Below, one piece after another: positions 19,647 to 40,857 of a stretch of 64,000 nt of DNA. The position numbers and the translations under genes were made by a program. The stretch is taken from IMG/VR virus record IMGVR_UViG_3300037248_000049, positions 810 through 64,809 of that record, one strand, 5' to 3'. A model generated the notes under the pieces. The model was not told where the DNA came from. It made no database searches and was given only the letters and a program-made list of their open reading frames with translations. The first letter of the stretch is position 1; the number at the start of each line of letters is the position of its first letter. The DNA comes from a virus. Its lineage: Duplodnaviria; Caudoviricetes.

Positions 19647-19650
19647 GGCC

Positions 19651-20183: not shown

Positions 20184-20226
20184 GGCGATACCGAAAATCT
20201 GCCAAATCGCTCATGGCTAACAATTT

Positions 20227-20382: not shown

Positions 20383-20383
20383 G

Positions 20384-21024: not shown

Positions 21025-21027
21025 TGG

Positions 21028-21737: not shown

Positions 21738-22099
21738 CACTGGATGACCGGCGTCGGAGGTATGGTCGTCCCGGTCGGCGCCGTGGTCGGGGGCGTCACG
21801 GGCAATGCCGGCGACGGCACGGTCGGCGGCGAGACGGGGTTTGCCGGGACGATCGGGGTTGTCACCGGCGCCGTCGTACCGACCATCGGCACCGTCGTCA
21901 CCATGCCCGGCGTCGCGTTGACCTGCTGCAGCCCGACCTGCAGATTGTGGAGCGCCACGGCCTTTTCCATGATCAACTGCGGCAGCAGCTGGTCGATCTG
22001 GCTCGAAACATCCGTGACCGCTCCGCCGAGGCTGCCGGCGGCCGTGCAGCCGGAAAGTCCCAGCGCCAGCACGGCGGCGCAAACCGCTTTGCTCGTCAT
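21737..22099 (-). CDS. Lipoprotein with Pro/Thr tail
   Basis: LALGLSGC lipobox. Confidence 0.75.
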   Translation of the reverse strand: MTSKAVCAAVLALGLSGCTAAGSLGGAVTDVSSQIDQLLPQLIMEKAVALHNLQVGLQQVNATPGMVTTVPMVGTTAPVTTPIVPANPVSPPTVPSPALPVTPPTTAPTGTTIPPTPVIQ

Positions 22100-22590: not shown

Positions 22591-25500
22591 CTAGAAATGG
22601 TTGTCGTAGAGCCAGCGCGGGTTCGTGTTGAATATCGTCGATATCGGCGCGACCTGCGTCAGGGTAGAGGCAATCGCCGCAGTCGTCGTGGGGTTGGACC
22701 CAGTCAGGGCCTCCCACCAGTTCGCCATTCCGTAGCCCTCGGCGCCGCGCCCGACGGGATTCTGATAATCGTTGCCGCTCTCGATATCACCGTAGGAGGG
22801 AGCCGGGCACGACAGGCCGGTTATGAACCCGAACTGGCTGGCCCCGGTATTGGCCGGGTAGATGACCGCGCTCGGTGGCGTCGCCGTCGAAAGTGTCGTC
22901 AGCGTGCCCTGCGTCCCGGACGATCCCACCTGCGTCCAGATGAACTGCTGGCCCTCGGTAATCGCGATCGAGTGGCCCATCCCATCGGTCGCGGTGAACG
23001 GAAATGCCCCCGATTGGTAGTCATTTGGCGTCGTGCCGTGGGCCTGGTCAATATTGGCCAGAGTGACGATCGTCCCGGTGGGCCACGGCGTGCTGACCGT
23101 CGATGGTTGGGGGCCGGGGTCCGGATAGTCGTTTCTCGGTGAGAAACCTAGCTGGTCATAGAAGACCAACTGGTCGCCGGATGCTGGGCACGGCATGTTT
23201 GTAGTGCATTCCCACTGCCAGCTTCCCTGTGCGGTCTGCTGAAGGGTGACTGTGGTCCCGCTGATCGACTTGACGCTGATATTCGACCCGTTCGAGAAGT
23301 AATGCGGTGTCACATTCGGGTTGGATACATCCAGGACAAGCTGCCCAGGAACTATTCCGGCATTCGATGCGACTGTCACGGTCGTAGTCGCAACCGTGGC
23401 CGCAGCGGTAGTGGTCGTAGAGATTGATGCCGGCATCGTAACTGAGCCACTCAGAGTCAGGCCGGTAAGGCCGGTAGAGCCGGTAACGTAAGTGCCCCAT
23501 GGTACGTTCGCTGGCGTAGTAAGATCGTAAACCTCACTGCCGTCGATGATGGTCGCGGTGCCTCCCGGATTGTAGAAGTTGATCAGGTCGCCGGAGGCAA
23601 CGGTCACGGTATTGCTTATCGTAACCGTTGTCGTGCCCACAGCCGAGACCCGCGTTCCGCTCGGGATCGCCGATGGATTCGTGAGGTCGAAGACGTACTG
23701 AGCATTGTCGGAAAACGCGGGGCCGCCGGAGAAGTTGAGGACATTGCTTGCGCTGGTGGCCGAAGTCGTCGCCTGCACGACCGTCCCGTTATCCGTGTTG
23801 CTGTTGACCGTGATCGTCGATCCCGAAGACGACGCGACTGGGAATGCCCACCATCCCTCGGCGGTATTCGCCGTGTACCCAGCAAGGAACACGTCGCTCC
23901 CAGCCTCATAGTTAAGCGCGTTGCCGTTTCGATTGTACTGGATATAGGCGTTGCCGGCCTGTAGCGTTGTGGCATCCCAAGACGTAAGCGGCTGTAGCGT
24001 CGTCGTACTTACGAATGTTGGAAATACATAGACGAAGGCATTGTAGATGCACTGCGACAGGTCCGGCATCGCGAAGTTATTGAATACGGCATCGGCAACC
24101 GTCACCAATGCCGGAATGGCCCCGCCAAGATGCATGTACTCGTTCTCAATCTCCAGATCGGCATAGCCCTCGGTAAAGAACTCCTGCATGATGCCGCCAT
24201 AGGGTGCCGGCGGTGATAGTGGCGTGGTGTACCCGATAAACGGAATGTAAAGGCCATTGGCGGTCATGCTGTAGCCCTTGCTGATCGCCGTCGGCGACGT
24301 AGTTCCGGCGGTTCCGCTTCCGACATAGGGGAACCACGCCGCATACGCGTCCCAAGCCTGGACGGTCTTGTAATAGGCCATCTGGCCGTCGGGCTCATTG
24401 TAGTCGAACAACGCCACCGGCTCGAAAGCATGCATCCCCCAGGCCGACGCGCGCACCGATCCCTGGACCGGCCCCTCGGTATAGTACGTGTTGCCGTTGA
24501 ACGCGACGTTGCGAGCCTGTGGCGCGTAGATGTTCATGTCCACAAGCGTGCCGTTGAAGTCCAGCTCGAAGAGCATGTACCGGCGCCCTTCGGTGATGTA
24601 CGGGTAGATTGCAAAGTTGCCGAAGTGCTGCACGTCGAATGCGCCGCCGCCTGAGCCTCCGTAGGGCTCATCTAATCCCCAGGCCATATCGAACTGCGTC
24701 GGTGGACCCACGGTTGACCCCATACCAGCATTGGGGCGCACCGGGTCAGTGAACCTGCCGGGTTTCGTCCAGCCTGACGCCCCGTTCGGAATCCAGTTGA
24801 CCGGATTGCTCGTCAATGGCTCGCGTGGGCCGCCGATCTGACCGTCATTGCCCAGCGCCCCGACGCGTCCGCTCTGAGCGAACGAAGCTCCGCCGTCGGG
24901 CGCCGTGTCCTCTACCTCGTAATGCCACGCATTGACCGTAGTCTCTGCGCCGAGCCACCCGTGGTCGCCGGCCTGACCGGAGTCCGACACATCGTCGTTG
25001 CAGTCGAACGAGTACGGCACGTAGGGGCAAGCCATAAAGGTCGCGCCCATCCAGTCGTGGTCGTCTGTCGCCGGCAGCGTATTGCTCACCATCGTAATCT
25101 GTTGGAGCGGCGGCAGGATATGCGAGGCGTGCAGATATGTCTTGTCCGATGTCGTCAGGCTGGCGACCACATTATTGTAGGCCGTCGAGCTCGACAGCGA
25201 GCCCCCGACTACCCAGAAGGGCAGCCCCGCAGTATCGACAAACCACCAGGCGCCCCCGCTGGCGACCATGTTGATGCCGGTGTATCCGGTATTGCCGTTG
25301 GCGGCGCCGTAGAGCTCGGTCGAGTTGTTCAGCAAGTCGGCATTGAAGGTCCAATTCTGGATCGTCCCGCCGGCCGAATAGACGGCATTGTCGCTCTCGA
25401 TCGCGACGCTATAGCCCCAAATGCCGCCGCCGGAGTTCTTCCACGCCTCCACGATGGCATGAAACCACACTGGCTGGATGACCGTCTTCCATGAGCAGCT

Positions 25501-27198
25501 TCCGTCGCTGATTGCGGTCCCGACCCCTACGGGCGCGGTCGAGCCGGACGTGCAGTTGGCGTTCGGCTGGTAGGCATTTCCGAGCGAGCTTACCGTGCTG
25601 CTGGTCGTGTAAGGGGTGCTCGCCGCCCATGCCGACAGCCCGGCGTCAACGGGATAGCCCCACACCTGGTAGCCGTTCTTGACGCTGTCGCCGGCGTATT
25701 GGCAGACCTGCGACGTGGTGGCGCCCAGGTTGGTGCAGAGCGGCACGCTGGTCGTGCCGGAGAAGATGGCGCCGAGGTCGAAGTAGAATGTGCCGCTGCC
25801 GACAGTCGGGCATCCCGAGCCGGGCGTGTTGACGACGACGCCATTCGGCCAGGTAACCCCGGACCCGTTGACGTAAGAGGTGAACGACAGCACCGGGGCC
25901 GTGCCCGAGCACCCTTGGACCGTCACGGTGAGGCCGCCGCAATTCGACCCTCCCCCGCCGCAATTAAACCCGAGGATGGGGTTGTCGTTTATGACGCCGC
26001 TGCTGACCGCACCACTGCCGGACGGCACGACGATCCCGGCGAGCATTCCCTGCGTAATGTTGTTGACGGGGACGTAAGCCGTCGTGACATCGGTCAGCTT
26101 GACCTTGAAATCGGTCCCGGAGAAGTCAGTCGATAGGCTTCCGCCAGTGACGCTCGGCCAACCGCCGGAGCAGTCGAGTGTCCACGAGACAGTGGAATAG
26201 GTGTCGGAGGCGATGTTGGTCGGCTTGAACCCCGAAAATGAGAAGAACCGCGTCGAGCCGTCCTCCCAGGTGTCCGCGAAGTCGCTGGCGCTCCATTGCG
26301 CGAGCGTCACGCCGCCAATGCTGGGGTCCGCGTGGCAGCCGCTCGGCACCGCGCCCTTGGGGAAGTAGACCCCGGAGTTGACCGGCGTTACACCGCTAGG
26401 CGACGCGGAGCCGCTGTTGTTGAAAAACGAGTTCGTCTCGACGAACGTGCCGCCGGTAATCGTGAACGCCTGTTGCTGCGGGCTGTTCGATATGCCGGCT
26501 TGCGAGATCGAGAGACACACCTGATAGGTGCCGGCCGCCAGCGTGGTCGCCAGCTCGAGGTTCCAGGACGGCGCGCTGCCGGCGACCTGGAAATCGGCGT
26601 TGTTCGCCCCATTCGTCCCGTTGCATGTGGCGCCCGTCGTGGCGAGCACGACCGTTCCCGTGGTCGCGGGCGAGGCCGGCGACATCGGCGCGGTAATCTG
26701 CCCGACGATTGTTCCTGTTCCCAGGCCGCCCGTGAAGGTCGTGTTGGACAAGCTCGGCGCCGGAGTGACAAAGGTCTGCGCGGCCGGCGGACTGCACGTC
26801 ACCACGACAGCCTGCGTGTATGGCGATCCGCCGAGCCCGGCCTGCGTCGCGACGATGTTCAGGTTCAGCGTCGTCGTGCTGCCGCAGGTCGGCGTGCTAC
26901 CGTTGGTCGTCAGGTTCGCCGGCAGGGTCGTGCTCGACAGCGAGAAGTCCGCCGCCGCAGTCCCGGTCAGCGACAGCGTGCCGGTAAAGAGAGGGGACAT
27001 CGGGCTCAGCGTCACCGCAACGGCGGCGATCACCGTTCCCGAACTCGCCCCGCTCGTATAGCTGCCGGTTGACGGCGAGACGCTGGCAATCGACTGGCCT
27101 GCCGTCGGCGATCCGCCCGTAAAATGCAGTAAACGGGCACTAGCCGGCGAGAGCGCCGCGAGCAGTAAGACCAGCCATAACTGGACGACCCTCAACAC
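22591..27198 (-). CDS. Large exported multidomain protein: cadherin/Ig-like repeats, CBM-like repeat, PL26/YetA-like core
   Basis: Signal peptide ending ASA; GVYFPKGAVP..WEDGSTR; AWAASTPY..ISDGSCSW; VRASAWG helical-barrel motif. Confidence 0.7.
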   Translation of the reverse strand: MLRVVQLWLVLLLAALSPASARLLHFTGGSPTAGQSIASVSPSTGSYTSGASSGTVIAAVAVTLSPMSPLFTGTLSLTGTAAADFSLSSTTLPANLTTNGSTPTCGSTTTLNLNIVATQAGLGGSPYTQAVVVTCSPPAAQTFVTPAPSLSNTTFTGGLGTGTIVGQITAPMSPASPATTGTVVLATTGATCNGTNGANNADFQVAGSAPSWNLELATTLAAGTYQVCLSISQAGISNSPQQQAFTITGGTFVETNSFFNNSGSASPSGVTPVNSGVYFPKGAVPSGCHADPSIGGVTLAQWSASDFADTWEDGSTRFFSFSGFKPTNIASDTYSTVSWTLDCSGGWPSVTGGSLSTDFSGTDFKVKLTDVTTAYVPVNNITQGMLAGIVVPSGSGAVSSGVINDNPILGFNCGGGGSNCGGLTVTVQGCSGTAPVLSFTSYVNGSGVTWPNGVVVNTPGSGCPTVGSGTFYFDLGAIFSGTTSVPLCTNLGATTSQVCQYAGDSVKNGYQVWGYPVDAGLSAWAASTPYTTSSTVSSLGNAYQPNANCTSGSTAPVGVGTAISDGSCSWKTVIQPVWFHAIVEAWKNSGGGIWGYSVAIESDNAVYSAGGTIQNWTFNADLLNNSTELYGAANGNTGYTGINMVASGGAWWFVDTAGLPFWVVGGSLSSSTAYNNVVASLTTSDKTYLHASHILPPLQQITMVSNTLPATDDHDWMGATFMACPYVPYSFDCNDDVSDSGQAGDHGWLGAETTVNAWHYEVEDTAPDGGASFAQSGRVGALGNDGQIGGPREPLTSNPVNWIPNGASGWTKPGRFTDPVRPNAGMGSTVGPPTQFDMAWGLDEPYGGSGGGAFDVQHFGNFAIYPYITEGRRYMLFELDFNGTLVDMNIYAPQARNVAFNGNTYYTEGPVQGSVRASAWGMHAFEPVALFDYNEPDGQMAYYKTVQAWDAYAAWFPYVGSGTAGTTSPTAISKGYSMTANGLYIPFIGYTTPLSPPAPYGGIMQEFFTEGYADLEIENEYMHLGGAIPALVTVADAVFNNFAMPDLSQCIYNAFVYVFPTFVSTTTLQPLTSWDATTLQAGNAYIQYNRNGNALNYEAGSDVFLAGYTANTAEGWWAFPVASSSGSTITVNSNTDNGTVVQATTSATSASNVLNFSGGPAFSDNAQYVFDLTNPSAIPSGTRVSAVGTTTVTISNTVTVASGDLINFYNPGGTATIIDGSEVYDLTTPANVPWGTYVTGSTGLTGLTLSGSVTMPASISTTTTAAATVATTTVTVASNAGIVPGQLVLDVSNPNVTPHYFSNGSNISVKSISGTTVTLQQTAQGSWQWECTTNMPCPASGDQLVFYDQLGFSPRNDYPDPGPQPSTVSTPWPTGTIVTLANIDQAHGTTPNDYQSGAFPFTATDGMGHSIAITEGQQFIWTQVGSSGTQGTLTTLSTATPPSAVIYPANTGASQFGFITGLSCPAPSYGDIESGNDYQNPVGRGAEGYGMANWWEALTGSNPTTTAAIASTLTQVAPISTIFNTNPRWLYDNHF

Positions 27199-30100
27199 CC
27201 GTACCCCGCTGAGTACGTGCAACCTAAGAGCCAATAGGGAACGGCCCCGCCAGCAGTCGCATTGATCGGGTTGTAATTGGTGATCGTCGTATCGGCGTCG
27301 GTAAAATCTCCCAACACTGCCTTGGCATAGCTCGCATCGGCCTGGTACTCGGCGAACCGACTGTCGCTTCCAGCGCGGCCAGTCACAATCTCCCAATTGG
27401 CATTACCGCTAGGACACGAGGCGTTCGGCACGATCCCCCAATTGGATTGCGTATTGGCCGTGAAGGTCAGCACTCCGGTACACGATCCGCCCGAGAATCC
27501 CGTTGCGACCTCCCCGTGGGTGGCATCGGTCGGGCAGTAGTAGTACCAGGTTCCCTCTACGGCCGGAGGCGGCGGCCACGGCCCGACGTTGTATCCATTG
27601 GGCGTCATCAGGACCTCGCCGCCCTCATCGACGTTCGCGGGAGTAATTCGCGACCCCGCCGGCATCGGCGTTCCAGACGACAGAGGGTAGTCGGTCGTGT
27701 TTCCTCCGACGCTGGTGAGAACGCTGGACCCGTTAGTCGTCGTCCAACCGCCCTGATGTTCGGGGATGATGGCGCTGAGCATTGGCTGCTGCGGATTGGT
27801 CGGATCGGTGCTGTTCCAGCCCGGTATCGGAGTTAGACCACCGATTGTCGTCAGGAGTTCGTCAGGCACATAGTCGATTGTGTTGTAAGGGCACGATTGA
27901 CCCGTTTCCTTGACGAAGTAATTCCGCACCATGTAGGTGATGATCTGGTCCAGGTCAGGAAACGTGTGGTCGTACCACTTGTACTCTTTCAGCAGCTCCA
28001 TGACCCAGTACCCGGCCATGAATTGTGCCAGCACCTGATTACCGCCGCAGCTCTGGTACTGACCCATCGTAGCGAAGCTGGCTGAGCGCGTGTCGCCGGT
28101 TGGGCCGTATCCATTGCCGCACTGGCCGACGAACTCGATGACACGCCTGATGATCGCGTAGTCGATGCCGTTCAGGTATTGGTAATACGACTGATCAGGT
28201 TCGGAGGTTGGAAGGAAAATCGCGGCCTGCGCTATTGCCGACATCGACCAGGCTACTTGCCTAACGCCATCTCCGGTGCAGCCAGCCGTCGGCGTCGTAA
28301 CTGGCGACGTGCCGGTGCTGAAATAGATTTGGCGATCGGTCGTGTAGCACTCGATGGCCGCCGCGGATGCGGCATCGTCCATCGCACGCAGTACCCAGCG
28401 CTCGCCCTCGATCATGTAGTCAAGCTGGAAGTGCCCCGAACCCCAGTGACCCCAGTCGAGCACGGTCTGACCGGCTGTCTGTGTCAGGGGCGTGGCGCCG
28501 CTGGCAGTCATGTCGTAGGTCGATGCGGTCGTCCGCACTGGGGTCATAACGGATGCGGAAGACCAGCCCGAGGAGCCGATGTAGTTCACGGCGTACCCAG
28601 TCGCCGGCTCCTTGTTGCCGGCGGTGATCGCGTTCTGCCCCGCTGCGGCCATACGCATGCTCTCGAGCCATCCCCAGCCGTGGTCCGACGCGATCGGGGC
28701 GACGAGATACCACATGGCCTCATTGAGCGGCAGCGGGCCGACGAAGTTGTGCGAGCCGCCGTTCCCGAGCACCAGGACCGCATCCACGCAATCGAAACCG
28801 AATGGATAGTAGGAACACTCGTCGGTAGACCCGTTCTGCGTTCCCGTCTCTGTCAGCACCTGCGGCGTGACGAGGCTCGACGTGCGCGCGTTGTCGTCGT
28901 AGGGCGGGATCAGCCCCGTACCTTTCAGGTAAGCCTCATCCCCGGTCGTCGGCGTCGGGAAGACTGCCTTCAATACTGCGTCATTGGCCGAGAGCGCCCC
29001 TGTCGAATCGAAATTGTCGACCTGGTTATTGGCATCGTTCGTCAGCCAGCCGCCGAACAGCGGATGCTGAATGCCCTCGTACTCCGGGTTGGCCGTCACC
29101 CCACTGCCGCCGCACCAGCCCCGGATCGGAGCCGAGCCGTTCTGCCAGCACGCATCATACATCCAGCTCGGAACGGTCGTGCTGGCTTGGTAGAAGCCGG
29201 AGCTTATCATCCCGTTCGCACGAAACCCGTAGGTCGTGCCGTCGACGTTCTTCAGGTGCTCGACGATGATGTCGTAGGCCAGCCACGGATGCGGCGCGCC
29301 TCCGGTATTGTCCAAGCACGGGCCGCGAGCCTCCCATGCGTCATCGAGCGGCCCCTTTTTGAACTGGACCGCAGTGGACGCCGTCGTATTGAACTCGCAG
29401 ACGTAGCTGCCGGAGCCGTCGACGGCGCAGCCTGAACCGCCACTGACGACGCTTGCCGACGCGGCCAGGTTAGTCGACCCGCTGTAGGTCACGTCGACCA
29501 CGGGCGCTACCGAGCATCCGTAAATCGTCCCGACCGCCTGAGTGCCGCACCCGGCCCCGGAATTAGTACAGTCGTAGCCCAAGGTGGCGACGGTGCCGCC
29601 CAGGCCGCCCGCGTAGCGCACGAACGCGCTTGTGACAGCGCCGCCGCTGACGTGCCAGCCTATTGCATTGTAAGGCGGGACGCCCGGCAGATTGGACGTG
29701 ACCTGCGACTCATTGTTTAGCTCGACCTTGTAATCCGTGGCGCCAGTCACGTCGGCGACCGTGCCGGAGGACGTGTTGTTGTAGCTTCCGAGCTGGGAAG
29801 TCCAGGTGATTTGTTCCGAGCCTCCCGCCGTCAGCTGAGGCAGAAAGAACGTGAACACCCCGCCGCGCAGCGACCCGTCAGGCCAATACACAAGTTCATC
29901 GGCCTGGTAGAGAACAGGCGACCCGCCGACGGTCGGAACCGCGATATAGCCCGTGGGCACAACTCCAAGGGCGAACCAAGCCGGCTGCTGCTTGGGGAAG
30001 CAAGTGTTGCCGCTGGTGACGCAGGTCTGTTTCGCAGCCGTCGGAGTCGTCGAGCCGGACGTATTCGTGACCGTCATCGTATAGACGACAGAGCTTCCGC

Positions 30101-30389
30101 TGCTCGGCGGCGATCCGCCATGGACCTTGATCAGCAGTGCCGCATCGAGCGGCCCGGCGGCGGCCAGGATCAACAAAAGGGCGAGCCAAAGACGCTGAAT
30201 GTATGTACGATAGCAGCTGGCGCGGCTCAGGGCCGCGATCCCGGAGGCAAAACGTGAAGCATCTTCGCTCGAACGACGCCGGGCTGTGGCAGATTTTGCG
30301 CGGATTCTGGTGGATGATCCGGTCTTACCGCACGCTGCGGCGACACCAGCTGCCGCTGCCGCCAGGGCCGTAAGGATGTTCCGCGTCAT
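27192..30389 (-). CDS. Large exported PL26/YetA-like protein, paralog of 22591-27198
   Basis: LWLALLLILAAAGPLDA signal after a basic leader; YQADELVYWPDGSLR; VRQVAWS. Confidence 0.7.
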   Translation of the reverse strand: MTRNILTALAAAAAGVAAACGKTGSSTRIRAKSATARRRSSEDASRFASGIAALSRASCYRTYIQRLWLALLLILAAAGPLDAALLIKVHGGSPPSSGSSVVYTMTVTNTSGSTTPTAAKQTCVTSGNTCFPKQQPAWFALGVVPTGYIAVPTVGGSPVLYQADELVYWPDGSLRGGVFTFFLPQLTAGGSEQITWTSQLGSYNNTSSGTVADVTGATDYKVELNNESQVTSNLPGVPPYNAIGWHVSGGAVTSAFVRYAGGLGGTVATLGYDCTNSGAGCGTQAVGTIYGCSVAPVVDVTYSGSTNLAASASVVSGGSGCAVDGSGSYVCEFNTTASTAVQFKKGPLDDAWEARGPCLDNTGGAPHPWLAYDIIVEHLKNVDGTTYGFRANGMISSGFYQASTTVPSWMYDACWQNGSAPIRGWCGGSGVTANPEYEGIQHPLFGGWLTNDANNQVDNFDSTGALSANDAVLKAVFPTPTTGDEAYLKGTGLIPPYDDNARTSSLVTPQVLTETGTQNGSTDECSYYPFGFDCVDAVLVLGNGGSHNFVGPLPLNEAMWYLVAPIASDHGWGWLESMRMAAAGQNAITAGNKEPATGYAVNYIGSSGWSSASVMTPVRTTASTYDMTASGATPLTQTAGQTVLDWGHWGSGHFQLDYMIEGERWVLRAMDDAASAAAIECYTTDRQIYFSTGTSPVTTPTAGCTGDGVRQVAWSMSAIAQAAIFLPTSEPDQSYYQYLNGIDYAIIRRVIEFVGQCGNGYGPTGDTRSASFATMGQYQSCGGNQVLAQFMAGYWVMELLKEYKWYDHTFPDLDQIITYMVRNYFVKETGQSCPYNTIDYVPDELLTTIGGLTPIPGWNSTDPTNPQQPMLSAIIPEHQGGWTTTNGSSVLTSVGGNTTDYPLSSGTPMPAGSRITPANVDEGGEVLMTPNGYNVGPWPPPPAVEGTWYYYCPTDATHGEVATGFSGGSCTGVLTFTANTQSNWGIVPNASCPSGNANWEIVTGRAGSDSRFAEYQADASYAKAVLGDFTDADTTITNYNPINATAGGAVPYWLLGCTYSAGYGC

Positions 30390-32116
30390 GGCATTAGCGC
30401 GAATTTCATAGAGCGCGTGCCGGACGCACCGTTCGAGTCCTGCGTCCACGAGCCGCCGGTGCTCGTGTAGGTGCTGCCGTTGGCGGAGCCGTAAGCGTTG
30501 TTGTTATCGTAGGTAAAAGTTACGGTGCCATACCCGTTGTTGTTCCCGGCTTGGATAATTATTGCATATTGACCCGCAGTCAGCGTGGCCGGCGAGGACC
30601 AGGTGAACAGGGTATCCTGCGGCGACCAAGACAGGGTGCTTCCAGCGACAACCGCAGAGGCCACTGTCGCGCCAGGAGCGGTTCCGGTCCAAGGCGCCAG
30701 CGAGACGGTCACATTTGCCGAAGAGTTGGCAACGAACCCGTTACAGTCGGAGCTGACCGTCCCGCAATTGATCCCGATGACCAGATGCACGCCATGCGTC
30801 GTGCCGGATGGTGCGGTAATGACCTGCAACTTTGACAAGCCGCTGGATATGCCGTTGCTGCCAGCAGCGCTGTTGTAGGTTGGCGTCGCTCCGTTAATCA
30901 GGTAATCCTGAACAGTCGCCCCGCTCGGGGGGCTGGGCGGTGCTGCGGCTGTTCCTCCTATGAGGGTCGTGGCCGGCACGCAATTCGAGATCGACAGCGA
31001 CGTGCCGGAGACGGTGATGATCCCGAAATAATTATTGCTCAGCGCCTGGTTTGGGTAGCCGTCCGCCGTATCTCCCTGCGCCACTCCAGATGTCGCAAAG
31101 AGCGCGGAATGAAACAGGATGTAGGTGTTCCCGCCAAGCGTCGCGGTATCGTCAAGGAACGGCTGGCCGCCACAGCTTAGCGCCAACAGAGTCGATCCCG
31201 CAGTGGGGGCCGCTGCCGTCAGGCTGGATGGACTGGCGAAATAGTAATATGTGACCCCTACGCCATTGCAATACAGGCATGGCGCCGTACCCTTCGTGAA
31301 GAATACGTTGTTGCCGCTCTGAAATTCGCCGTTTCCTTCGCACTCATATCCAAACCCAGGGCCGAAAGTGCCGGTGCCGGTCAGGCCGTTGGAGGTCAGC
31401 TGCTCGATGTGGCAGGTGAACGTTGAATCATTATAGAGGATGTAATGGTTTCCGCTCCAGTCGAACGGCACCACGTCGTCAAATGGATAGTTGGCGCCAC
31501 CCTCTAATGTGGGGGCGGTTCCTGGGTTGGCGCAATCGGTCGACCCTCCTTCACCTATGCCGCCGGGATGCGCACATGATACCAGCCCAAGCGGAACAGA
31601 GGTCTGGCCGTAGACCAAGAACCAAAGATTAAACTGCCCGGTGTTCGTGTTGTAGGCCATCCTGGGCTCGTCGCACCACTTGAAGGCTTCGGCGCTTTGG
31701 CAGATAGAGGCCCAATTCGTCGCGGAGTTAGACGGGTTGAACACATGCCCGATCGGCGTCCACTGCACGCGGTCGGTAGACTTGTAGACATTGAAGCCGC
31801 AGAACGGCGTGTTGAGTGCGGAGTCGAGAAGATACCCGCATGAGAAGTCAGTCGCGTAGCCATAGAATGTCCCGGCCGGGCAGTTCGCCCATCCGGCTTG
31901 ACATTGTAGGATCGTGCCGTAGAAGCCGCCGATCTGGTTGCCGGACGTGTCGAACAAGGCGACTTGGTTAGCCGGCGCAGTGCCGATCCCATCAAAGTTC
32001 TCAATGACGGGCGGAGCGCCAGTCCCCCCGTAACCGCCGTTCGGCCTTATCAGGATATGCCCGTCAGCCGATACCGACAACAGCAGCAACAGGCATGCGA
32101 GCGCTCTGAAAAGCAT
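30386..32116 (-). CDS. Exported GH43-like five-bladed propeller protein with C-terminal beta domain
   Basis: Signal peptide; GFNVYKSTDRVQW, EPRMAYNTNTGQFNLWF, YECEG. Confidence 0.65.
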   Translation of the reverse strand: MLFRALACLLLLLSVSADGHILIRPNGGYGGTGAPPVIENFDGIGTAPANQVALFDTSGNQIGGFYGTILQCQAGWANCPAGTFYGYATDFSCGYLLDSALNTPFCGFNVYKSTDRVQWTPIGHVFNPSNSATNWASICQSAEAFKWCDEPRMAYNTNTGQFNLWFLVYGQTSVPLGLVSCAHPGGIGEGGSTDCANPGTAPTLEGGANYPFDDVVPFDWSGNHYILYNDSTFTCHIEQLTSNGLTGTGTFGPGFGYECEGNGEFQSGNNVFFTKGTAPCLYCNGVGVTYYYFASPSSLTAAAPTAGSTLLALSCGGQPFLDDTATLGGNTYILFHSALFATSGVAQGDTADGYPNQALSNNYFGIITVSGTSLSISNCVPATTLIGGTAAAPPSPPSGATVQDYLINGATPTYNSAAGSNGISSGLSKLQVITAPSGTTHGVHLVIGINCGTVSSDCNGFVANSSANVTVSLAPWTGTAPGATVASAVVAGSTLSWSPQDTLFTWSSPATLTAGQYAIIIQAGNNNGYGTVTFTYDNNNAYGSANGSTYTSTGGSWTQDSNGASGTRSMKFALMP

Positions 32117-35100
32117 CAGGTGCCTTGCTGGGTAAGCGTGCAGCTCGTCTGGCCCGCTAAGCTCGTCGGCGTAGCTTGGAGGTCGTCGACGCGGATGCCG
32201 GTCACGGCGCTGCCGGTCGGAAAAGAACCTGTGCCGCCTACCGTGTAGGTGACCGTTCCGTTGTAATTGTACTCGTTATATGTAATGATCTTGCTAGCGT
32301 CATTGCTGGCCCCTGTCGATGTTGCCAACCCAAGCATGTTAACAACAAAACTGGTGCCAATAGTTCCTGTGGTGGCAGATGAATTACCTATAAATCCATT
32401 TGTCGCAGGGGACGTAATCTCCGACGGTGCGGTTGCAGAATTTGTATAGAACGAATTATTGACGTAACCAGTCGTTTCCCAGCTTCCGTCATAGAATTGA
32501 ATGCCAACCTGGTTGGTGGCACCGGCAATGATATTACGGCACTGAAGGAGGTAGTTGTTTCGACTGAGGCCGGTATAGGCGACACAGGCCGTTGAGCCGG
32601 GGCAGTTCGCGCCCGTGGCCGCCGCCTGCGTCCACACGCACTGCCCCGAGTAGGTCGAGAGCGTGAAACCGGAGTCGCAGGTAGCGCCGCCGCTGCCGCT
32701 CCCGGTGCAGCCCTGCGACCCGACCGCGATCGTGTAGGTCCCGGCGCCGCCGTTGGTCGAAAGCACCTTGCCGATGACCTGGCCGCTCGACGGGCAAGTG
32801 GCCGCCCCGGTGTCGTGCCCGTCGCCCGCTGTCGTCGAGCTGATCTGGACGTAATCCCCGGCGGTCGTCGCCCCGTCGAAGGCGAGGCTGGCCTGCCCTT
32901 CCTTGGCAATCTGGGCATTACCGCTCGTTCCGGCGCCGGCCATGACGACGCCTGAGATTCCGTTTGTATCGGTCGTCGCGGCGATGACCGCCGTGGCCCC
33001 GACAATCTTGGCGAGCTTGTTGACCGTCGTCCCGGTCGTCCCGGCATTCGTCACGTCAGTCGTGAAGTAGCTGGTCGCAATGTCGAGCGGCCCGGTAATG
33101 CCAATGCCGTTTGCGCCGGGGCAGGTATTTGAAGACGGAAGGTCCAGGCAGCCGTTGGAGCCGAGGGTCATGTTGTTGACCGGGCTCGTCGAGCCACTGA
33201 GCGTCGTGCCCCAGGTGATCGCTGTCGGCGTCGAGCCGGTAGACCAGGTTCCCGTCGTCACGAAAGACATATTCGCTTGCGAGCCGGTCGTATAGGCCGA
33301 GCCATTGTAGCCACGGCCGGCGACAGCGAGGATCGTCGAGCTTCCCGCGAGAGCAGTTGGAGACGCGACGGTGCCGCTCGTTGCATACCCCGTAAAGACA
33401 ACGTTAGCGCCGTTGCTCGCCAGCGCATTGTACCCACTGTTGCTGCCGTCTACGGCAACATCGAGCACCCCGCCACCTGTCGGCGTCAGGCCGGACGGAA
33501 CAGAAGCGGTATTGAAGTTACCGTTGAGGTTGTTGCCGCTGTCATAAAGCCACTTCGGCTCAAACGACACGGCGGTTCCGGTCGTCGCGTAGTAGGTCGC
33601 CGCGCCGGCCACGGTCGAGTTGTTGACCGTTCCCGAGCCACCCCCACTACAGAGATTGCCGGCGACGTTGATCGTCCCGGAGCCGTTGGTCGTCACGGTC
33701 GCCACACACCCGGCATTGACCGCGACGGAACCGCCGGCACCCGTCGTGCCCGCCGCCGACGTGATCACGTCCGGCGAGGTCGCCGCGATCGTGCCTGCGT
33801 TGATCGCGTTGATGACCACCCCGCCGTTTGACGGCAAGGTCGTCGATACCGGCACCGTCGATGTCAGGCTCGCGGAATTGAGGTTGATCGTCTGTCCCCA
33901 CGCGAACTGCGCCACGGTCGGCGATGCGCCGGTCCCGGAGGTCGATGTCGTCGCCTGCGTGACCCCGGCCCCGACGATGGTCGACTCGACGTAGCAGTTC
34001 GCCGAGATCGGCGCCGGGCACGAGGTCTCGGCCTGGAAATCGTAGACCTGGCCGTTGTTCAGCAATTCGCCGCCGCCGAGCGCCTGGAGGCCGGTCGGGG
34101 TCATCTTCGCCACCGCTGCGGCCGAGGTGCCGTTGACGCTCAGTGTGGTCGCCCCGGTGTTCGCCGTGCCGATCGTCGAGCGGACGACATAGCCGTTGGT
34201 GAAGACAAAGCCGGTCGGCGCCGTGGTCGCGAGGGTCTGCGCGTTCGCCGAGCCGGCTGTCGGGCCGCCGACGAAGATGACCGCAGTGCCGCCGCCGGAA
34301 CCGCAAGCAGCCCCGGCATCTTCTATCCCAGGCCCCCATTCCAGGCAGTGCCCTGTAGTGACAGAGCCGTCCTGCGTAGTGAACGACCCGGTATTTCCTG
34401 GCGTTATTGCCAGCGCCGCAGCAACGCCCGTGCCCAGCCCCGAGAGGCCCGTCGAGACCGGCAGGCCCGTCGCGTTCGTCAGCGTCGCGGAGGAAGGCGT
34501 GCCAAGCGCGGGCGTCACGAATGTCGGGGAAGTCGTCAGCGAGATGGCGCCGGAGCCGTTTACCGCAACCCCCAAGGCCGTCGCGACCCCGGTGCCTAGA
34601 CCAGAGACGCCCGTAGAAATCGGAAGCCCGGTGCCGTTTGTGAGCGTGCCTGACGACGGAGTTCCGAGTGCGCCGCCATTGACGACAAATGCTCCGGCGC
34701 TCCCAACGTTGTCGCCGAGAGCCGTCGTGACGCCGGTGCCGGGAACGACCGTGCCGGCAAGTCCGGTTCCTGATGCCCAAATGCCGAATGCGCCAGTAGA
34801 AATCGAGCCGGAGGTCGAGACATTCCCGCCGCCCGACGGCGTGGCCCATGTCCCATCGCCGCGCCAGAAGGTTGACGATGATGCTGACGTGCCGGAATTA
34901 AGATTGCCTACTGGCAAATTGCCCGTTACGCCGCCAGCACCGCCTGCCGCCAGGTTAATTGCCGGCAAGTCGGCGCCAACCAGCGCGCGCGGCGACACGG
35001 CACCTGCCGACCCGTTCGGCGAGGCCAAAACCTCATTTGCGGTTTCGCTCGTCCCGGTGATCGCCAGCGTGCCCGAGCTTGTGACCGGGGAGCCGCCAAC

Positions 35101-35493
35101 AGTGAGCCACGCGGGGGTCGTCAGCCCGACGCTGGTAACGGTGCCGGCGCCCGAGGGTGTGGCCCACGTGCCGTCTCCGCGCCAATACGTTGACGACGAG
35201 GCTCCAGTGCCGGAGTTCAGGTTCCCGACCGGCAAATTCCCCGTCACCCCGCCGGCGCCACCGACCGCCAGGTTAATTGCCGGCAAATGGGCGTTCATGT
35301 ACGTCGAGAGCTGCGCGGCCGAGGCTTGCACCGAGGGAACCGAGGAGCTGCACCCGTTTGTCGCACAATCCTGAAACGTATCGGTTCCCGATACCGACCC
35401 GACAGCGGTCATTTGCGAGATGTACTTGTTCTGCGCCCATGCCGGCGAAGACAGCAGCGCCACAATGGCGACCAGCGACCAAAAAAGGCGCAT
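32116..35493 (-). CDS. Exported fibre-like protein with internal repeats and DUF2190-like domain
   Basis: Signal ending AWA-Q; [24 protein letters not shown] twice; LGTPSS.TLTN.TGLP twice; [14 protein letters not shown]. Confidence 0.75.
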
Positions 35494-35495
35494 CC

Positions 35496-36002
35496 CTAAT
35501 CTCCTACGCATGTCGTCGTGTCGCCGCCGGCCAAGGTGCAGCTTGTGGTGTCGCCGCCGACCAGCACGTAACCGCTGCTGCCGCCGCCGCCGGGAGCCCA
35601 CTGCGAGCCGTTCCAGACGAGGGACTGGCCTATCGTGGGCGCCGTTGACGCCACCGGGCGGCCCTGCAACCCGACGACCGTGGCCGGCACGGAGCCCGTG
35701 CCCGATGCCGTCACGTCCTGCGTGAGCGCCGAGAGGCCGGTCGAGCAAAGCGTGTCGCCGAGCAATGTCCCTTTGGTGTTCGCCCACGTAGCGCAATGGC
35801 CCAAAGTCGTTGCCGCCGGCCCGACCACGCCGCCCGTCGTAAACGGGAATTGGTAATTGGTCCCGTTGATGTTGAAGTACAGCGGCAGCGGGGCGGCGCC
35901 AGCATAGGAATTGTAGCTCAGGAACGCGCCGGTCGCCGGCGTTTGTGCGTGCGCGGCGCCAATGACAACTGCCGTCAACAGAACCGCGACAAGAAATTTC
36001 AT
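35496..36002 (-). CDS. Small exported fibre-associated protein
   Basis: Signal ending AHA-Q; [16 protein letters not shown]; [13 protein letters not shown]. Confidence 0.75.
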
Positions 36003-37753
36003 TGCGACCGCCATTCCTCGCGACAGCCCGTCGAGGATGACGAGTTCGCGACGCAGCCAAATCTGATCGCTTGGGAACCAGACGCATTGGCCGTATAGGT
36101 GGCCCCACTCGCCAGATAAATATTGCCGCCTTGGATGATTTCCATTCCAGAAGATACGGGCGGATACAGCGTAAACTCGCGGCCCGGCCACACCCCGCCA
36201 ATCATCGCCGTAATGTTCGTCGTGCCCGTAAGAACAAAGCAGTCGCCGCTATTAGGCACGACCAGCGATGCTGCGGAGGCCAGTGGCGCGCATTGCGGTA
36301 TGACTGTGCCGGTGTTCGGGAACACTGTCAGTGTCGGCGTATTCGTGTCGATTTCATGGATCGTGATCGGGTTCCACGGCACAGGAGTCGGAGTGGTTGC
36401 AAATGAAACGAAGGGAGCGACACCGCCATGCGCGCTGTAAAAGCTCGCGTGTTCGATGTCCACCGGGCTGTTCGACACTGTGTCCGGCGACTGGACCGTG
36501 GTATCGATGTAGTTGATCGGCATGGCGGGGCCGCCGTTGACGATCAGGTGGCCGATCTTGACCTGGCCGGCCATGATCCCGGTGCCTCCGCCGATCGTCA
36601 GTCCATCGGTCTGTGCCGCTCCGATAAAAAGCCGTCCAAATGTCGTCGTGGTTGTCGGAACGGAAGAATTCTGGATTACGACATTCTGGGCAAACGCGCC
36701 CGGCACCACCGCGTCGGCGATGCTCACAAAGCCGTTGAAGTCGCCGTAATCCACCAGCAGCCCGATGCTACTGCCCGGCGAGCACGCCGAGTCGAAGTCC
36801 GACCAGATTTTACCGACCTGGAGGATTTGCGGGTTGCCAGAGGTCGCCGACTGTAACTCAATCCCGACGGTCGCATACAGAAACACCAGCACGTCATCGA
36901 CGAAATCGCCCTGGGCATGCTCGAGAAAAAAGCCCTTGCCGGGCCGCACCAGGGCCGTGCAGCCAGTGGCTTGCGAGGTCGATGTCAGCGGCGAGATTTC
37001 GAGGTGCAGGTAATCCCCGATGTCACTGTCATTGCCTCCGTAAATCGCCGCATTCGTGACGCCGGAGCAATCCACTTTGTCGTACTCGACCCTGGCGCGA
37101 CTGGACCCGTAGGTATCGATGCAGGTGTCGAAGCCGACAATCACGCTGTTTGTGACGCCGACATCGCGATAGCCGCCGCCGTAGAATGCCGTGCTGCCGG
37201 TCGGGAATGTCGCCGGATTGGTCGTCGGGAACGCCATGCCATTGCGATAGATCAGGCAGTTGGCAATCCGGGCGCCTTGGCCGCCAGCCGTGATCGTATG
37301 GCTGCCGTCCAGCATGATCGCCGGAAGGTTTCCCCACTCGGTGGGCGTATTGTCCTCGTTGTTCGGAAAGCTCGCCTGGCAATTCAGCGTCGTAAAAGCC
37401 GGGATCGTGATGTTGCCGAGCACCTCCAGGGAGACTTGCGGGCTCACCGCGCAAGCGCTGCCGGTAGCCGCATTCAGGCACGCCTGCAATGCCGAGGTCG
37501 CATCCCCGGCCGTGGTGCCAATCGACGCGGCACTGCCGATCGCCGGCAGGTGCGCGTTCATGTACGTCGAGAGCTGCGCGGCCGAGGCGCTGTTCGACGC
37601 GATTGCCGAGCTGCACAAGTTGCCGGCGCAATCCTGAAAGGTGTCGGTTGCCTGGACGGTGCCCACTGGCGTCATTTGCGAAATGGTGCGGTTCTGCGCC
37701 GCCGCCGGCGAGGACAACAGTGCCAGCAGGATTATGAGCCATGCGGCTTTCAT
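35999..37753 (-). CDS. Exported beta-helix (tailspike/pectin-lyase-like) protein
   Basis: Signal ending AAA-Q; [13 protein letters not shown] cap motif followed by beta-helix-like rungs. Confidence 0.75.
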
Positions 37754-39939
37754 TGGCCGGCAGCCAAGGTGCAGGTGCCTTCGACGGAGAAGGGGCCGGT
37801 TCCACTGCCGAAATCGCTAGCCGGGATCGGCTGGGTAGACACGCCGCCGCCGCTCTCGACCAAAAGCGCCTGACTTGTGCCTCCCGCTGCGTAGATGCCG
37901 CTCATTACGGTGTAATTGGAATCCAGCACAATGCCGGAGTGGCTGGAAATCGAGCAGAACGCGTTCTGGTTTGTCGTGCCGTTCAGGGTGAACGGCAGGC
38001 CCTTGACCGCCACGCTGCCGGTCATGCCGCTGGTTCCGCTGACGTTGACGTTGAACGAAACCGTCAGCAGCGACCCGTCGTACCAGAACGTCCCGACCTG
38101 CGTCGTATAGGTCACGGTCCCGGCCGTCGTCGTCCCGACGACCGTCGGCGTCCACTGCTGGCGCGTCCCTCGGATCGCATAGGTGCCGCCCGCCGAAACC
38201 GGCGGGATGACCGTGCCGCCGTTCTTCGGGTTGACGACATTCGGCTGGTTGGCGACGGATATCCACCCGGCCGTCCCGGCGTTCAGCCCGACCGAGCTAT
38301 TGTTGTCGTTGTTGAAATTCCACAACTGAGCGTTCGCGATCGAGAGCCGGCCGGCAGCGGTCGGGATGTCCACGCAATTGCTGCCGGCGTCGAAACACTG
38401 GAAATTAGCGATGTCGACCGTGCCGCCGCCGTCGTCGCGATATCCTTCCGAGCCGGCGAGGTATGCGCCGCCGAGAAACACGTCGCCGTCAGTGCGCAGG
38501 TTGCCGATTTGCAGCTGCGTCCCGCTGGCGCCCGGCTTGACCCACGCCGAAAACTTTGTCGCGTCAACTTGGAGAGAGCCGATCTGCGCGCCGGTCGTAA
38601 TCCCGTTGGATGAAACGCCGAACGCCATCCCGCTGTGGTAGCCGTAGACAAAGACCTTGCCGACAAAGGGGCTGTCGGCGCGGTCGTACAAAATCGGGTC
38701 TACATTGGCCTGCTGGTAGGCGCCGACGTAGGGGCTGGCGCTCCAAAAGGTCCAGAAGTCGATGTTGTCGAGAAACGAGATGTCGTGCTGCTGATCCGAA
38801 AAAATGCACGCGCCTTCGGGCTGACCGGAAATATTGGCGACGTGGCTGCGTGCCGAGTTGACCAGGCTGATGCAGCCGGTAGTGTTGTAAAACAGCAGGT
38901 TATCCCAGTCGAGGCGGCCAAGGTTGCCGGTGGCGCTGAACCACGGCGGGTAATTTGTCGGAGCCCAGCCCGGCCCGACAGCGGGCTGCACGTCATAGAA
39001 TGCGATGTTACCGAACCCCGGCGTGGCACCCTGGCCAGTGACGCCCGTGATCGTGACTGGATTGAAGCCGGGGCTCGACCGGGATATCCACGTCCCGGTC
39101 ATGTAGGACGGCGACAGCGATGGTGCCTGGACAGCCTCGTTCCACCCGGCACCCTGAAAGCACGGCTGCTGGGCCGTCATCGTCACGGCCGAATTCCACT
39201 GCCAAATCCCGGCCGGGATCAGGACGCAGCCGACATTCGCGTTGTAAGCCGCCTGAACGTAGGGGGCCATGTCGGCCGACTGGGTTGCTCCCCAAACGCG
39301 GAGGTCTGTGGCGGACTGAGGCTGCTTGTTCCAGCATCCGCCCCCGATTGTCGGCTGGACCTGCGATCCGTTGTCGCCGGCTCCCGTGTTGATCGAGCAC
39401 CCCGAGGTCGAATAGGCATAGGTAGCCGCCCCGCCGTCCCCTGCCAAGTAGAACCCGGCACGGTAGACGACCGCCCCGGTTGGGGGAGCCGCAATCGCTT
39501 TCAATGCGGCATTCGACGGCACCGTAGAGAAACACGGCGCGCCGAGGTCGCCCAGTAGCGTTCCGCCGGTATTGGCCCACAGAGCGCAATCGCCGACTGC
39601 GCTTAATGACGGGCCGACGACCGACCCGCCGCCGCCCCCCGGTGGAGGCCCGACGCTGCCGATGGTGGCCTGCGCCCCCATGCACAGCAGGCGATACCCG
39701 CCCGAGGCCGGGTCGTTGCTTCTGACGCAGCTAGGCGTCCCGGTATTGGTGATCCCGAGCTCGGTCAGATTGCCGTTCTGCGCCCCGCCGGCGTCTTGCG
39801 CGACACCGTTCGTCGTCGCCCGCAACGTATGTCCCGGCGTCAGCGGCCCCTGCTGCCAGATCGGCATATTTTGTGCGTAAACTGGCGCTCCGACCCATAG
39901 GAATAGAGCGAGCAGAGCCAGCATCCGCAGGATGCGCAC
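37750..39939 (-). CDS. Exported beta-helix tailspike-like protein
   Basis: Signal ending VYA-Q; GFYLAGDGGAATY, DLRVWGA..DMAPYVQAA..VLIPAG; C-terminal WTPTV..GLPF fibre-tip motif. Confidence 0.8.
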   Translation of the reverse strand: MRILRMLALLALFLWVGAPVYAQNMPIWQQGPLTPGHTLRATTNGVAQDAGGAQNGNLTELGITNTGTPSCVRSNDPASGGYRLLCMGAQATIGSVGPPPGGGGGSVVGPSLSAVGDCALWANTGGTLLGDLGAPCFSTVPSNAALKAIAAPPTGAVVYRAGFYLAGDGGAATYAYSTSGCSINTGAGDNGSQVQPTIGGGCWNKQPQSATDLRVWGATQSADMAPYVQAAYNANVGCVLIPAGIWQWNSAVTMTAQQPCFQGAGWNEAVQAPSLSPSYMTGTWISRSSPGFNPVTITGVTGQGATPGFGNIAFYDVQPAVGPGWAPTNYPPWFSATGNLGRLDWDNLLFYNTTGCISLVNSARSHVANISGQPEGACIFSDQQHDISFLDNIDFWTFWSASPYVGAYQQANVDPILYDRADSPFVGKVFVYGYHSGMAFGVSSNGITTGAQIGSLQVDATKFSAWVKPGASGTQLQIGNLRTDGDVFLGGAYLAGSEGYRDDGGGTVDIANFQCFDAGSNCVDIPTAAGRLSIANAQLWNFNNDNNSSVGLNAGTAGWISVANQPNVVNPKNGGTVIPPVSAGGTYAIRGTRQQWTPTVVGTTTAGTVTYTTQVGTFWYDGSLLTVSFNVNVSGTSGMTGSVAVKGLPFTLNGTTNQNAFCSISSHSGIVLDSNYTVMSGIYAAGGTSQALLVESGGGVSTQPIPASDFGSGTGPFSVEGTCTLAAGQ

Positions 39940-39997
39940 GACGTTCCCAATGGGGTTTGCCGGGACTATCCCGATTTGTTCCCCAAAAAAACGCACG

Positions 39998-40628: not shown

Positions 40629-40857
40629 CCTTGCCTCCAACGGTTCGCAGCCCAGTCTTCAACGCATCGAACGAGCCGCCCGCCGAATCGTCGGACGGAA
40701 GATTCTTAGCCGCTTTGCTTATGCCGATGTGATAGGTCGTTACAACCTTGAACGCGTCCAATTTATCAGGCAGCGGCGTCTGATCGCGCAGGGCCACCTC
40801 GAGGATTGACCGCGCCAATTCCTCGAGCTGTCTGCCGATGCTCTTCGGGCGGCTCAT
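40621..40857 (-). CDS. Hypothetical protein
   Basis: ATGA coupling. Confidence 0.65.
   Translation of the reverse strand: MSRPKSIGRQLEELARSILEVALRDQTPLPDKLDAFKVVTTYHIGISKAAKNLPSDDSAGGSFDALKTGLRTVGGKDA

Follow-up and report, generated by a model that had tools for sequence, protein, structure and literature searches.

The accepted view is that the fibres and tailspikes of tailed phages fold in the reducing cytoplasm and join the particle there. Tailspike depolymerases are not known to have a signal peptide, and they are added to the particle in the cytoplasm. In podophages with several receptor-binding proteins (the K1-5/SP6 adaptor, the KP32-type second receptor-binding protein, phiK64-1), depolymerases plug into an adaptor through short N-terminal modules, and here too docking takes place in the cytoplasm and the proteins are not known to be exported. 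Particles without spikes can be completed outside the cell, as when P22 tailspikes or T4 fibres are added in vitro. We analyzed a stretch of 64,000 nucleotides (the window) from the virus record IMGVR_UViG_3300037248_000049, in which seven consecutive genes in the tail fibre slot, here called G1 to G7, very probably encode proteins that are exported and fold with disulfides.

Export has been described for proteins that resemble the products of G1 to G7 in part. WceF of Pantoea stewartii (PDB 6tgf) is a trimeric, tailspike-like bacterial exopolysaccharide (EPS) glycanase with a P22-like head-binding domain that is exported by the Tat pathway (PMC7949094). WceF joins a signal for export to an N-terminal domain of tailspike type and to a right-handed beta-helix that cuts EPS, and G1 appears to be built in a similar way (6tgf ranked 25 among the Foldseek matches of G1, E 1.1e-6). 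WceF is chromosomal, belongs to an EPS cluster and uses Tat, whereas the window contains seven phage fibre-slot genes with Sec-type signals and products that are Cys-rich with even Cys counts; its surroundings are those of a phage genome (terminase, major capsid protein (MCP), integrase and lysis genes), not of an EPS cluster. Phage endolysins that cross the membrane before lysis through host Sec export include the signal-peptide endolysin Lys44 of fOg44 and the signal-anchor-release (SAR) endolysins (PMC6116005). They resemble the products of G1 to G7 as phage late proteins that would likewise cross the membrane, but they are lysis enzymes and not of fibre or tailspike type, and docking on a virion is not at issue for them. 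Prophage carbohydrate-active enzymes (CAZymes) with signal peptides called by SignalP numbered 3261 of 64,678 in a survey that by design removed tail fibres and other structural proteins (PMC13507307); here, in contrast, the fibre-slot genes themselves would be exported, with their fibre N-modules kept.

The seven genes form one module in the canonical fibre slot. They are consecutive minus-strand open reading frames (ORFs) that take up 17.3 of the 64.8 kb of the record (22591-39939), with ejection genes upstream and lysis genes downstream, just where the original prediction had placed them (Table 1). Translational coupling had been claimed for the whole module, and was found between G1 and G2 and between G2 and G3 (ATGA overlaps), between G3 and G4 (a 2-nt gap), between G4 and G5 (a 1-nt overlap) and between G6 and G7 (a 7-nt overlap); the passage from G5 to G6 was unclear. 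The stop/start overlaps fix the starts of G2, G3, G4 and G5. An upstream ATG at 30389, which forms an ATGA overlap, would add 63 residues to G6. The GC content by codon position in this stretch is.56/.76/.60 versus.56/.54/.77 in the body of the gene, statistics that are like those of non-coding DNA. If translated, 30201-30389 would encode a lipobox-like LAAAAAGVAAAC followed by an Arg-rich linker, and a 97%-identical public protein has the same arrangement upstream of the G6 core. Public gene calls of the same sequences start at an internal ATG for G1 (P0081), inside the hydrophobic core for G5 (P0006) and at the upstream ATG for G6 (P0009).

The seven predicted proteins all begin with what appears to be a Sec-type signal peptide. 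We called signals with a heuristic of our own, in a loose and a strict form, and by reading N-termini by eye, not with a trained predictor. The layout sought was a basic n-region, a core of about 8-15 residues and a small-x-small site, within about 30 residues of the start. By this heuristic, 7/7 have the layout of signal peptidase I substrates (G6 only if translated from the ATT at 30200): the first few residues are mostly basic, a core rich in Leu follows, and a small-x-small site lies 17-22 residues from the start. The strict scores were 3.3-3.95 for G1 to G7; 0/12 other window proteins reached 3.0 (the best were 2.15 and 2.86). These scores support the Sec-type signals that the original prediction had read on all seven. 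The Kyte-Doolittle mean of the N-terminal 12-residue window was 2.5-3.2 in all seven and at most 1.8 in every other structural ORF. The predicted cleavage sites of G1 to G7, in order, are VYA-Q, AAA-Q, AHA-Q, AWA-Q, VSA-D, LDA-A and ASA-R. The signal of G1 (39874-39939) is MRILRMLALLALFLWVGAPVYA-Q; the hydrophobic core of G6, LWLALLLILAAAGPLDA-A, leads into ALLIKVHGG, and the signal of G7, MLRVVQLWLVLLLAALSPASA-R, into RLLHFTGG. The signal codons look translated because their pooled GC content at third codon positions (GC3) is 0.71, close to the 0.78 of the gene bodies.

The predicted mature proteins are rich in Cys, and their Cys counts are even. The counts for G1 to G7 are 14, 14, 4, 18, 16, 22 and 20, mostly in close pairs, in agreement with the many closely spaced Cys noted earlier in all seven; the chance of seven even counts is 1/128. 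For comparison, the three ejection proteins have 0 Cys each and the MCP has 2. Even mature counts were also found in 31/33 strictly called homologues of G1 (binomial p 6.5e-8) and in 6/6 homologues of G2 and G5, and an alignment of G2 with four homologues has 10 invariant Cys columns. In the family of G6, counts were even in 12/17 Sec-type, 16/20 Tat-type and 7/14 signal-less members, and the median number of Cys per 100 aa fell in the order Sec (1.47), Tat (1.24) and none (0.96; Sec versus none, p 0.001).

Signals persist in divergent homologues while the signal sequences themselves are unrelated. We searched for homologues of G1 with residues 18-260, which are almost free of signal sequence. 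All 43 non-self matches were signal-bearing by the loose rule and by eye, and 33/43 by the strict rule, which flags 0/16 rows of the MCP alignment. Signal-like N-termini were present in 4/4 non-self homologues of G2, and 2/2 homologues of G5 had signals. Conservation of the signal in homologous proteins, a check that had been proposed earlier, thus came out positive for these three genes. The G6 family, with 72 representatives, was more mixed: of 70 non-self members, 22 had Sec-like signals, 19 had Tat-like signals and 29 had no signal, were fragments or were missed. The Tat-type members (e.g., SRRDFLLGAA) include P0023-P0030, P0037, P0038, P0055, P0057 and P0064.

Signals were also enriched in the fibre slots of related phages. 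The MCP had 100 relatives in viral contigs, many of them on contigs of 60-67 kb, and we took fibre slots from 18 related genomes of 52-67 kb (17 of at least 60 kb). The slots were placed from MCP coordinates; the landmark PF18013 was present in just 1/18 records. The ORFs counted were length-greedy ones, since picking by GC3 missed genes in relatives with lower GC. Among ORFs of at least 200 aa, 55/168 in fibre slots were flagged as signal-bearing versus 12/207 in MCP-centred loci (Fisher odds ratio 7.9, p 1e-11). One fibre-slot gene of a relative (G018, L109:4598-6388) begins MISRRRLLISAAV. In a sibling genome (G001, with an MCP 96% and an ejection protein 81% identical to those of the window), the slot contains eight signal-bearing genes that are mostly unrelated to the seven in the window, indicating that the module is swapped freely and that the export property is kept. 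Variation of the module between sibling phages and a gene position after the ejection genes are features shared with tailspike depolymerases. Export signals appear to be a general trait of this large group of uncultured phages. None of the isolated phages is close: the MCP matched two records at 33-34% identity, and G2 and G6 had no match among isolated phages. G1 matched 11 isolated-phage records, in the beta-helix or mid-region only, including Bcep22, BcepMigl and Bcep43/781; in Bcep22, gp62 and gp64-66 lack a hydrophobic segment at their N-termini and contain 1-4 Cys. Scans of viral contigs with G1, G2 and the G6-family members P0062 and P0020 gave no match.

The predicted mature N-termini correspond to the N-termini of relatives that have no signal. 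Across the lineage, 22 distinct ORFs contain a fibre N-motif, QQSG.VTPGH...W...G...D.G (excluding L020, in which the motif is out of frame, and ORFs below 150 aa; L097 was counted as signal-less though it reads as a signal). In 12/22, the motif directly follows the signal, and cleavage would leave 2-7 residues ahead of it; in the other 10/22, it lies 5-12 residues past the Met, with no signal. Most signal-less ORFs span about 155 residues and have 0-2 Cys, and those with a signal are long and rich in Cys (p 0.0008). In three near-identical 67-kb relatives (L103, L104 and L105 in genomes G013-G015), a 156-163-aa signal-less N-motif protein with 0 Cys lies beside a 478-aa signal-bearing one with 10 Cys, at about 11.0-15.0 kb in each locus; the G5 homologue P0007 is on the contig of G015. 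Within the window, no other ORF has the fibre N-motif; as far as this motif goes, the original prediction was right that a signal-less fibre gene is absent from the rest of the window. G3, which has a 16-residue motif in common with G1, was matched by tblastn to the fibre slots of four relatives (L082, L100, L102 and L098).

A second type of mature N-terminus was found in G5, G6 and G7. The peptide after the signal is hydrophobic and basic and ends in GG: HILIRPNGG in G5 (window position about 32050), ALLIKVHGG in G6 (about 30135) and RLLHFTGG in G7 (about 27130), as well as LRLRGGG in the sibling genome G001. GG lies within 22 residues of the hydrophobic core in 32/39 signal-bearing members of the G6 family, and signal-less members, e.g., P0020 and P0062, begin at the GG strand (MIRILRGG, MSLTFRRGG). 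We suggest that the GG peptide may be a docking strand. A conserved mature N-terminus is to be expected where this end has to stay free for docking, and just as much where cleavage really occurs.

We examined folds and families gene by gene. None of the seven proteins had a Pfam match at E<=0.1, and the assignments below come from profile matches of homologues and from structure models. In G1, the signal is followed by the fibre N-motif (QQGPLTPGH...DAG); next come a beta-helix of tailspike type and, at the C-terminal end, a beta-domain. It matches a tail fibre family (residues 45-251) and a pectin lyase family (279-565) in PHROG. The AlphaFold2 (AF2) model of G1, from 41 sequences, has a pLDDT of 83.0, with residues 130-724 mostly above 90, and Foldseek found 72 PDB chains at E<=0.001. 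Phage tailspikes were at the top (8iq5 and 6f7k, E 6e-11), and the matches to the depolymerases K2-2 TSP (8iq5), Det7 gp208 (6f7k), CBA120 TSP2 (6w4q) and Fri1 gp49 (6c72) ranged in E from 6e-11 to 3e-8, all with prob 1.0. G1 thus models as a tailspike-type right-handed beta-helix. G2 has a 53-residue N-domain in common with G4 (40/53 identical, counted from the first mature residue), followed by a beta-helix-type body; the sole support for a beta-helix in G2 is that its homologue P0004 matches PF12708 (pectate-lyase-like) at 27.3 bits, just above the cut-off. Two beta-helix tailspikes had been predicted, and these results agree, for G1 through the Foldseek matches of its model and for G2 through P0004. 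G4 has the shared N-domain, two copies of a 31-residue repeat and a long Gly/Thr/Ser-rich fibre, with no match in Pfam or PHROG. We read it as a repeat fibre, as in the earlier description; the DUF2190-like domain included there was dropped for want of a Pfam match. P0005 also has the signal and the N-domain of G4.

G5 is probably a distant relative of GH43, the five-bladed propeller family, through transitive homology. G5 itself does not match GH43 (PF04616, cut-off 32.2 bits), and P0007, 45% identical to G5, scores 23.9 bits, which is below the cut-off. P0008 (26% identical to G5 over 90% coverage) matches at 55.5 bits, and D115, E205, E238 and others are invariant in the alignment of the three proteins. 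A PDB sequence search with G5 was empty. The earlier guess of a GH43-like propeller is thus tied to G5 indirectly, by way of P0007 and P0008.

G6 and its paralogue G7 model as a PL26-like multidomain fold. The AF2 model of G6, from 50 sequences, has a pLDDT of 83.9 and a pTM of 0.89, with low confidence at residues 18-30; low confidence in the GG peptide would fit a docking peptide modelled in a monomer. Its architecture is one of beta-sandwiches plus an alpha/alpha barrel. Foldseek matched it to PL26 (5xqg, E 3.6e-5, prob 1.0, TM only 0.26-0.30), and the VIA comparison with PL26 gave Z 10.6 and an rmsd of 4.3 A over 541 aligned residues (model 33-1002 versus chain 22-919); the GH105/GH88/YteR barrels, which came next, trailed by about 3 units at a Z of about 7. 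The model has the whole-length architecture of the PL26 exo-rhamnogalacturonan lyase of Penicillium chrysogenum (5xqg/5xq3) but only 8-9% sequence identity, and that protein is a secreted fungal enzyme. By sequence, neither G6 nor G7 falls in PL26 (phmmer against PDB, 0 matches at E<=1). ESM Atlas contained one weak viral cluster (score 0.80) and BFVD two uncharacterised phage proteins for G6. G7, which is paralogous to G6 (BLASTP, 27% identity over about 900 aa, E 1e-33), has extra domains at both its N- and its C-terminus. The two PL26/YetA-like proteins of the original prediction are therefore supported by fold and not by a sequence match. Taken together, the description of the seven bodies as glycan-active folds seems mostly right (G1 and G2 beta-helix, G3 and G4 fibre, G5 GH43-like, G6 and G7 PL26-like).

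Export with disulfide folding is the part of the original prediction that is well supported: signals are kept in divergent homologues, signal-less relatives start at the cleavage point, Cys counts are even and Cys density follows the order Sec, Tat, none. How the exported proteins are used is less clear. We favour a reading, to which we give an even chance, in which G1 to G7 are a hypervariable receptor-binding and depolymerase module whose products are made as Sec precursors; the phage would be temperate and podovirus-like, and its host a diderm that makes EPS. Late in infection, the precursors would cross the inner membrane and be cut by signal peptidase I after the AXA site, so that four mature chains would start with Gln, which may cyclise. 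A host periplasmic oxidase would then pair all Cys, and the folded proteins would wait in the periplasm until the endolysin and spanins break the envelope. Once freed, they would meet particles assembled in the cytoplasm; at least part of the set may dock on the tail at or after lysis, and the excess would act as free depolymerase on capsule or biofilm. Docking is proposed because the mature N-termini match the N-termini of signal-less relatives. Other points for it are that the window has no signal-less N-motif gene, that the module is large, variable and in the canonical slot, and that G2 and G4 share an N-module. We regard docking of at least part of the set as a possibility that falls somewhat short of even. 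The wider proposal, that a widespread, uncultured lineage of temperate 60-67-kb phages completes its virions outside the cytoplasm with Sec- or Tat-exported, disulfide-folded fibres plugged on at lysis through their mature N-termini, is more tentative still and rather unlikely. Tailspike depolymerases and exported tailspike-like EPS enzymes are both known; here there is a fair chance of a hidden new assembly route.

Several observations weigh against the favoured reading, and against docking in particular. Virions assemble in the cytoplasm, and Sec export therefore separates these proteins from assembly until lysis. We know of no phage that completes its tail by export, and our full-text literature searches gave exported endolysins only and no signal-bearing fibres or tailspikes. 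An export signal joined to a tailspike N-domain does not imply a role in the virion. WceF has both, and P0084, a signal-bearing beta-helix homologue of G1, is encoded on plasmid pAtAB2-73f of Rhizobium sp. AB2/73 (L112, 716996-758918) among genes for two Hint-domain proteins, a TPR-glycosyltransferase, FkbM-type and other methyltransferases, GT4 enzymes and an outer-membrane beta-barrel protein. This is a polysaccharide locus, not a prophage, and P0084 thus has the EPS-cluster setting of WceF that the window lacks. The signal-bearing prophage CAZymes described above count in the same direction. In three relatives (L094, L096 and L103), signal-less and signal-bearing N-motif proteins coexist, and docking sites could be taken by the signal-less one first. 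In the G1 model, the N-domain (residues 1-130) has a pLDDT of only 41-64, so that its likeness to known virion-binding domains is no more than putative. As for the signals, the loose heuristic flagged 2/12 control proteins and 6/16 MCP rows, and G6 has no canonical start codon beside its signal, with only the ATT at 30200 directly preceding the hydrophobic core. As for the host, finally, the binning of metagenome-assembled genomes (MAGs) gives hints only.

The proteins might instead be depolymerases or lectins that are exported but do not become part of the particle at any stage. Working outward from the periplasm, and also after lysis, they would strip or loosen the capsule or biofilm of the host and let progeny escape and spread. 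A secreted glycanase set was the alternative named in the original prediction, and it gains weight from WceF and from P0084. They might further remodel EPS in the lysogen as WceF does, and the adsorption device would then be among the upstream tail proteins (47969-53854). We think such a free enzyme set unlikely, if a serious alternative. WceF, with a Tat signal, a P22-like N-domain and an EPS locus, is a precedent (PMC7949094), as are P0084 within its Rhizobium polysaccharide locus and the signal-bearing prophage CAZymes of the survey (PMC13507307). The coexisting signal-less N-motif proteins in three relatives and the many Tat-type members of the G6 family, which are typical of bacterial exported enzymes, also fit. 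However, the window has no signal-less protein with the fibre motif, the module fills 17.3 of 64.8 kb in the canonical fibre slot, and the N-module common to G2 and G4 (40/53) is as found in stacked receptor-binding proteins. Free enzymes would also have no need of residue-exact mature N-termini, unless for trimer stability as proposed for WceF (PMC7949094).

A single gene could also give two forms, through alternative starts or incomplete export, with a cytoplasmic copy for the virion and an exported soluble depolymerase. Phages are known in which alternative starts yield both a soluble and a virion-bound depolymerase. In G1, an in-frame internal ATG at 39867, two residues past the predicted cleavage site, would give the signal-less form MPIWQQGPLTPGH, which has the layout of signal-less relatives (MGFVQQSGNITPGH and others), and the public call P0081 starts there. 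But by eye there is no Shine-Dalgarno-like sequence before 39867, most signal-bearing homologues have Leu rather than Met at this position, G3, G5, G6 and G7 have no such Met, and in G2 and G4 the Met is inside a conserved motif. A cytoplasmic copy of G1 would also hold 14 unpaired Cys, and we consider two forms improbable. Uncleaved signal anchors, which would keep the enzymes inactive on the inner membrane until the holin depolarises it, seem very improbable. SAR domains are weakly hydrophobic, Gly/Ala/Ser-rich N-terminal segments, and the segments here do not have these features: their cores are Leu/Ile/Val-rich (Kyte-Doolittle 2.5-3.2) with AXA-type sites, all seven have the small-x-small site 17-22 residues in, and signal-less relatives start just past it. 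In favour of anchors are the position of the module next to the lysis genes and the use of N-terminal export segments for timing by SAR endolysins (PMC6116005). It is hardly credible that the hydrophobic segments are an artefact of annotation, that is, untranslated 5' sequence with the true starts downstream. Public calls do start elsewhere for G1, G5 and G6, and G6 has no canonical start. Yet the segments occur in 7/7 genes in a row versus 0/12 controls, their pooled codons have a GC3 of 0.71, overlapping stop/start pairs pin the starts of G2-G5, and homologues whose signal sequences are unrelated still have a signal.

The surroundings of the module are those of a temperate phage. The window is nearly all of the 64,809-bp record, a phage genome of about 64.8 kb with genes for an integrase, Erf, a PD-(D/E)XK nuclease, a helix-turn-helix (HTH) regulator and a DNA methylase. 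The two ends of the record (G000:C1:1-281 and 64529-64809) repeat each other over 281 bases with nine mismatches, the second copy being 63720-64000 of the window; this could be either a terminal repeat or the circular assembly of a mixed population. The tRNA-Arg(TCT) gene starts one base past the integrase stop, making this a likely attachment region. The late block on the minus strand runs from a terminase-like gene through the MCP, tail proteins and three ejection-type proteins to four small ORFs, the seven module genes and the lysis region. One of the ejection-type genes (42260-44353) matches Phage_lysozyme2 (2.6e-19). About 900 bp holding the four small ORFs separates the last ejection gene from G1, and a T-run follows the last of these ORFs, just before G1. 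A promoter scan of the module gave three sites versus a shuffle mean of 4.1, not above shuffles, and terminator-like sites were weak. In PDB sequence searches, neither the 759-aa tail protein nor the putative portal had a match.

Table 1. Positions in the window of the module genes and of other features.
Feature	Position	Strand	Remarks
G1	37750-39939	-	GTG start; further ATG at 39924
G2	35999-37753	-	
G3	35496-36002	-	small, 168-aa precursor
G4	32116-35493	-	
G5	30386-32116	-	
Spacer or doubtful 5' extension of G6	30201-30389 (189 nt)	-	open in the G6 frame from ATG 30389
G6	27192 to about 30200	-	start codon uncertain (ATT 30200)
G7	22591-27198	-	
Four small ORFs, including 40320-40628	39990-40856	-	one with two predicted membrane segments; two very basic
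Three ejection/internal-virion-type proteins (432, 697, 472 aa)	40854..45651	-	upstream of module; Cys 0, 0, 0
Lysis region	19404..22099	-	downstream of module
Lipoprotein	21737-22099	-	read from sequence; no family match
Endolysin-like gene	21028-21399	-	PHROG endolysin families
i-spanin-like gene	19758-20183	-	inferred from sequence; no family match
Pro-rich lipoprotein, o-spanin-like	19404-19694	-	inferred from sequence; no family match
PEP-CTERM protein	8816-9457	+	adjoins HTH regulator 8209-8724; PF07589 23.7 bits, cut-off 20.7
tRNA-Arg (TCT)	15888-15964	+	
tRNA-Arg (CCG)	17768-17844	+	

The gene content gives some indication of the host. The lipoprotein and the spanin-like lysis genes point to a diderm. 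The PEP-CTERM protein starts with a Sec-type signal (MKQLLLAGTILGALAAPAWA-G) and has the PEP-CTERM sorting motif at its C-terminus. Its gene resembles those of lysogenic conversion, and its presence suggests that the host has an exosortase system, i.e., that it produces EPS. Alignment of the MCP to genome contigs gave nine loci, all in MAGs: four on contigs of 57-62 kb, one on a 43-kb contig and four on contigs of at most 15 kb. The MAG labels were mixed (four Acidobacteriota, three alphaproteobacterial, one 'delta' and one Verrucomicrobia). In a profile search with the MCP of 401 genomes from the phylum of genome G019, the single match was G019 itself. A search with P0030 of 401 genomes from the class of genome G021 had 0 matches, and alignment of G2 to genome contigs had none.

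If docking after lysis is true, then virion assembly in these phages would include an unrecognised extracytoplasmic step, and the pathway of a tailed phage would span two compartments. Co-lysing phages could then exchange receptor-binding proteins in trans, and disulfide-stabilised enzymes of host origin would be usable as receptor-binding proteins. If there is no docking, then a quarter of the genome would be spent on secreted polysaccharide-degrading enzymes, which bears on carbon turnover in soil and biofilms and on adsorption. Pipelines that drop signal-bearing proteins from structural sets, or fibre-like ones from CAZyme sets, miss this class of proteins, and as disulfide-stabilised depolymerases its members would be attractive enzymes.

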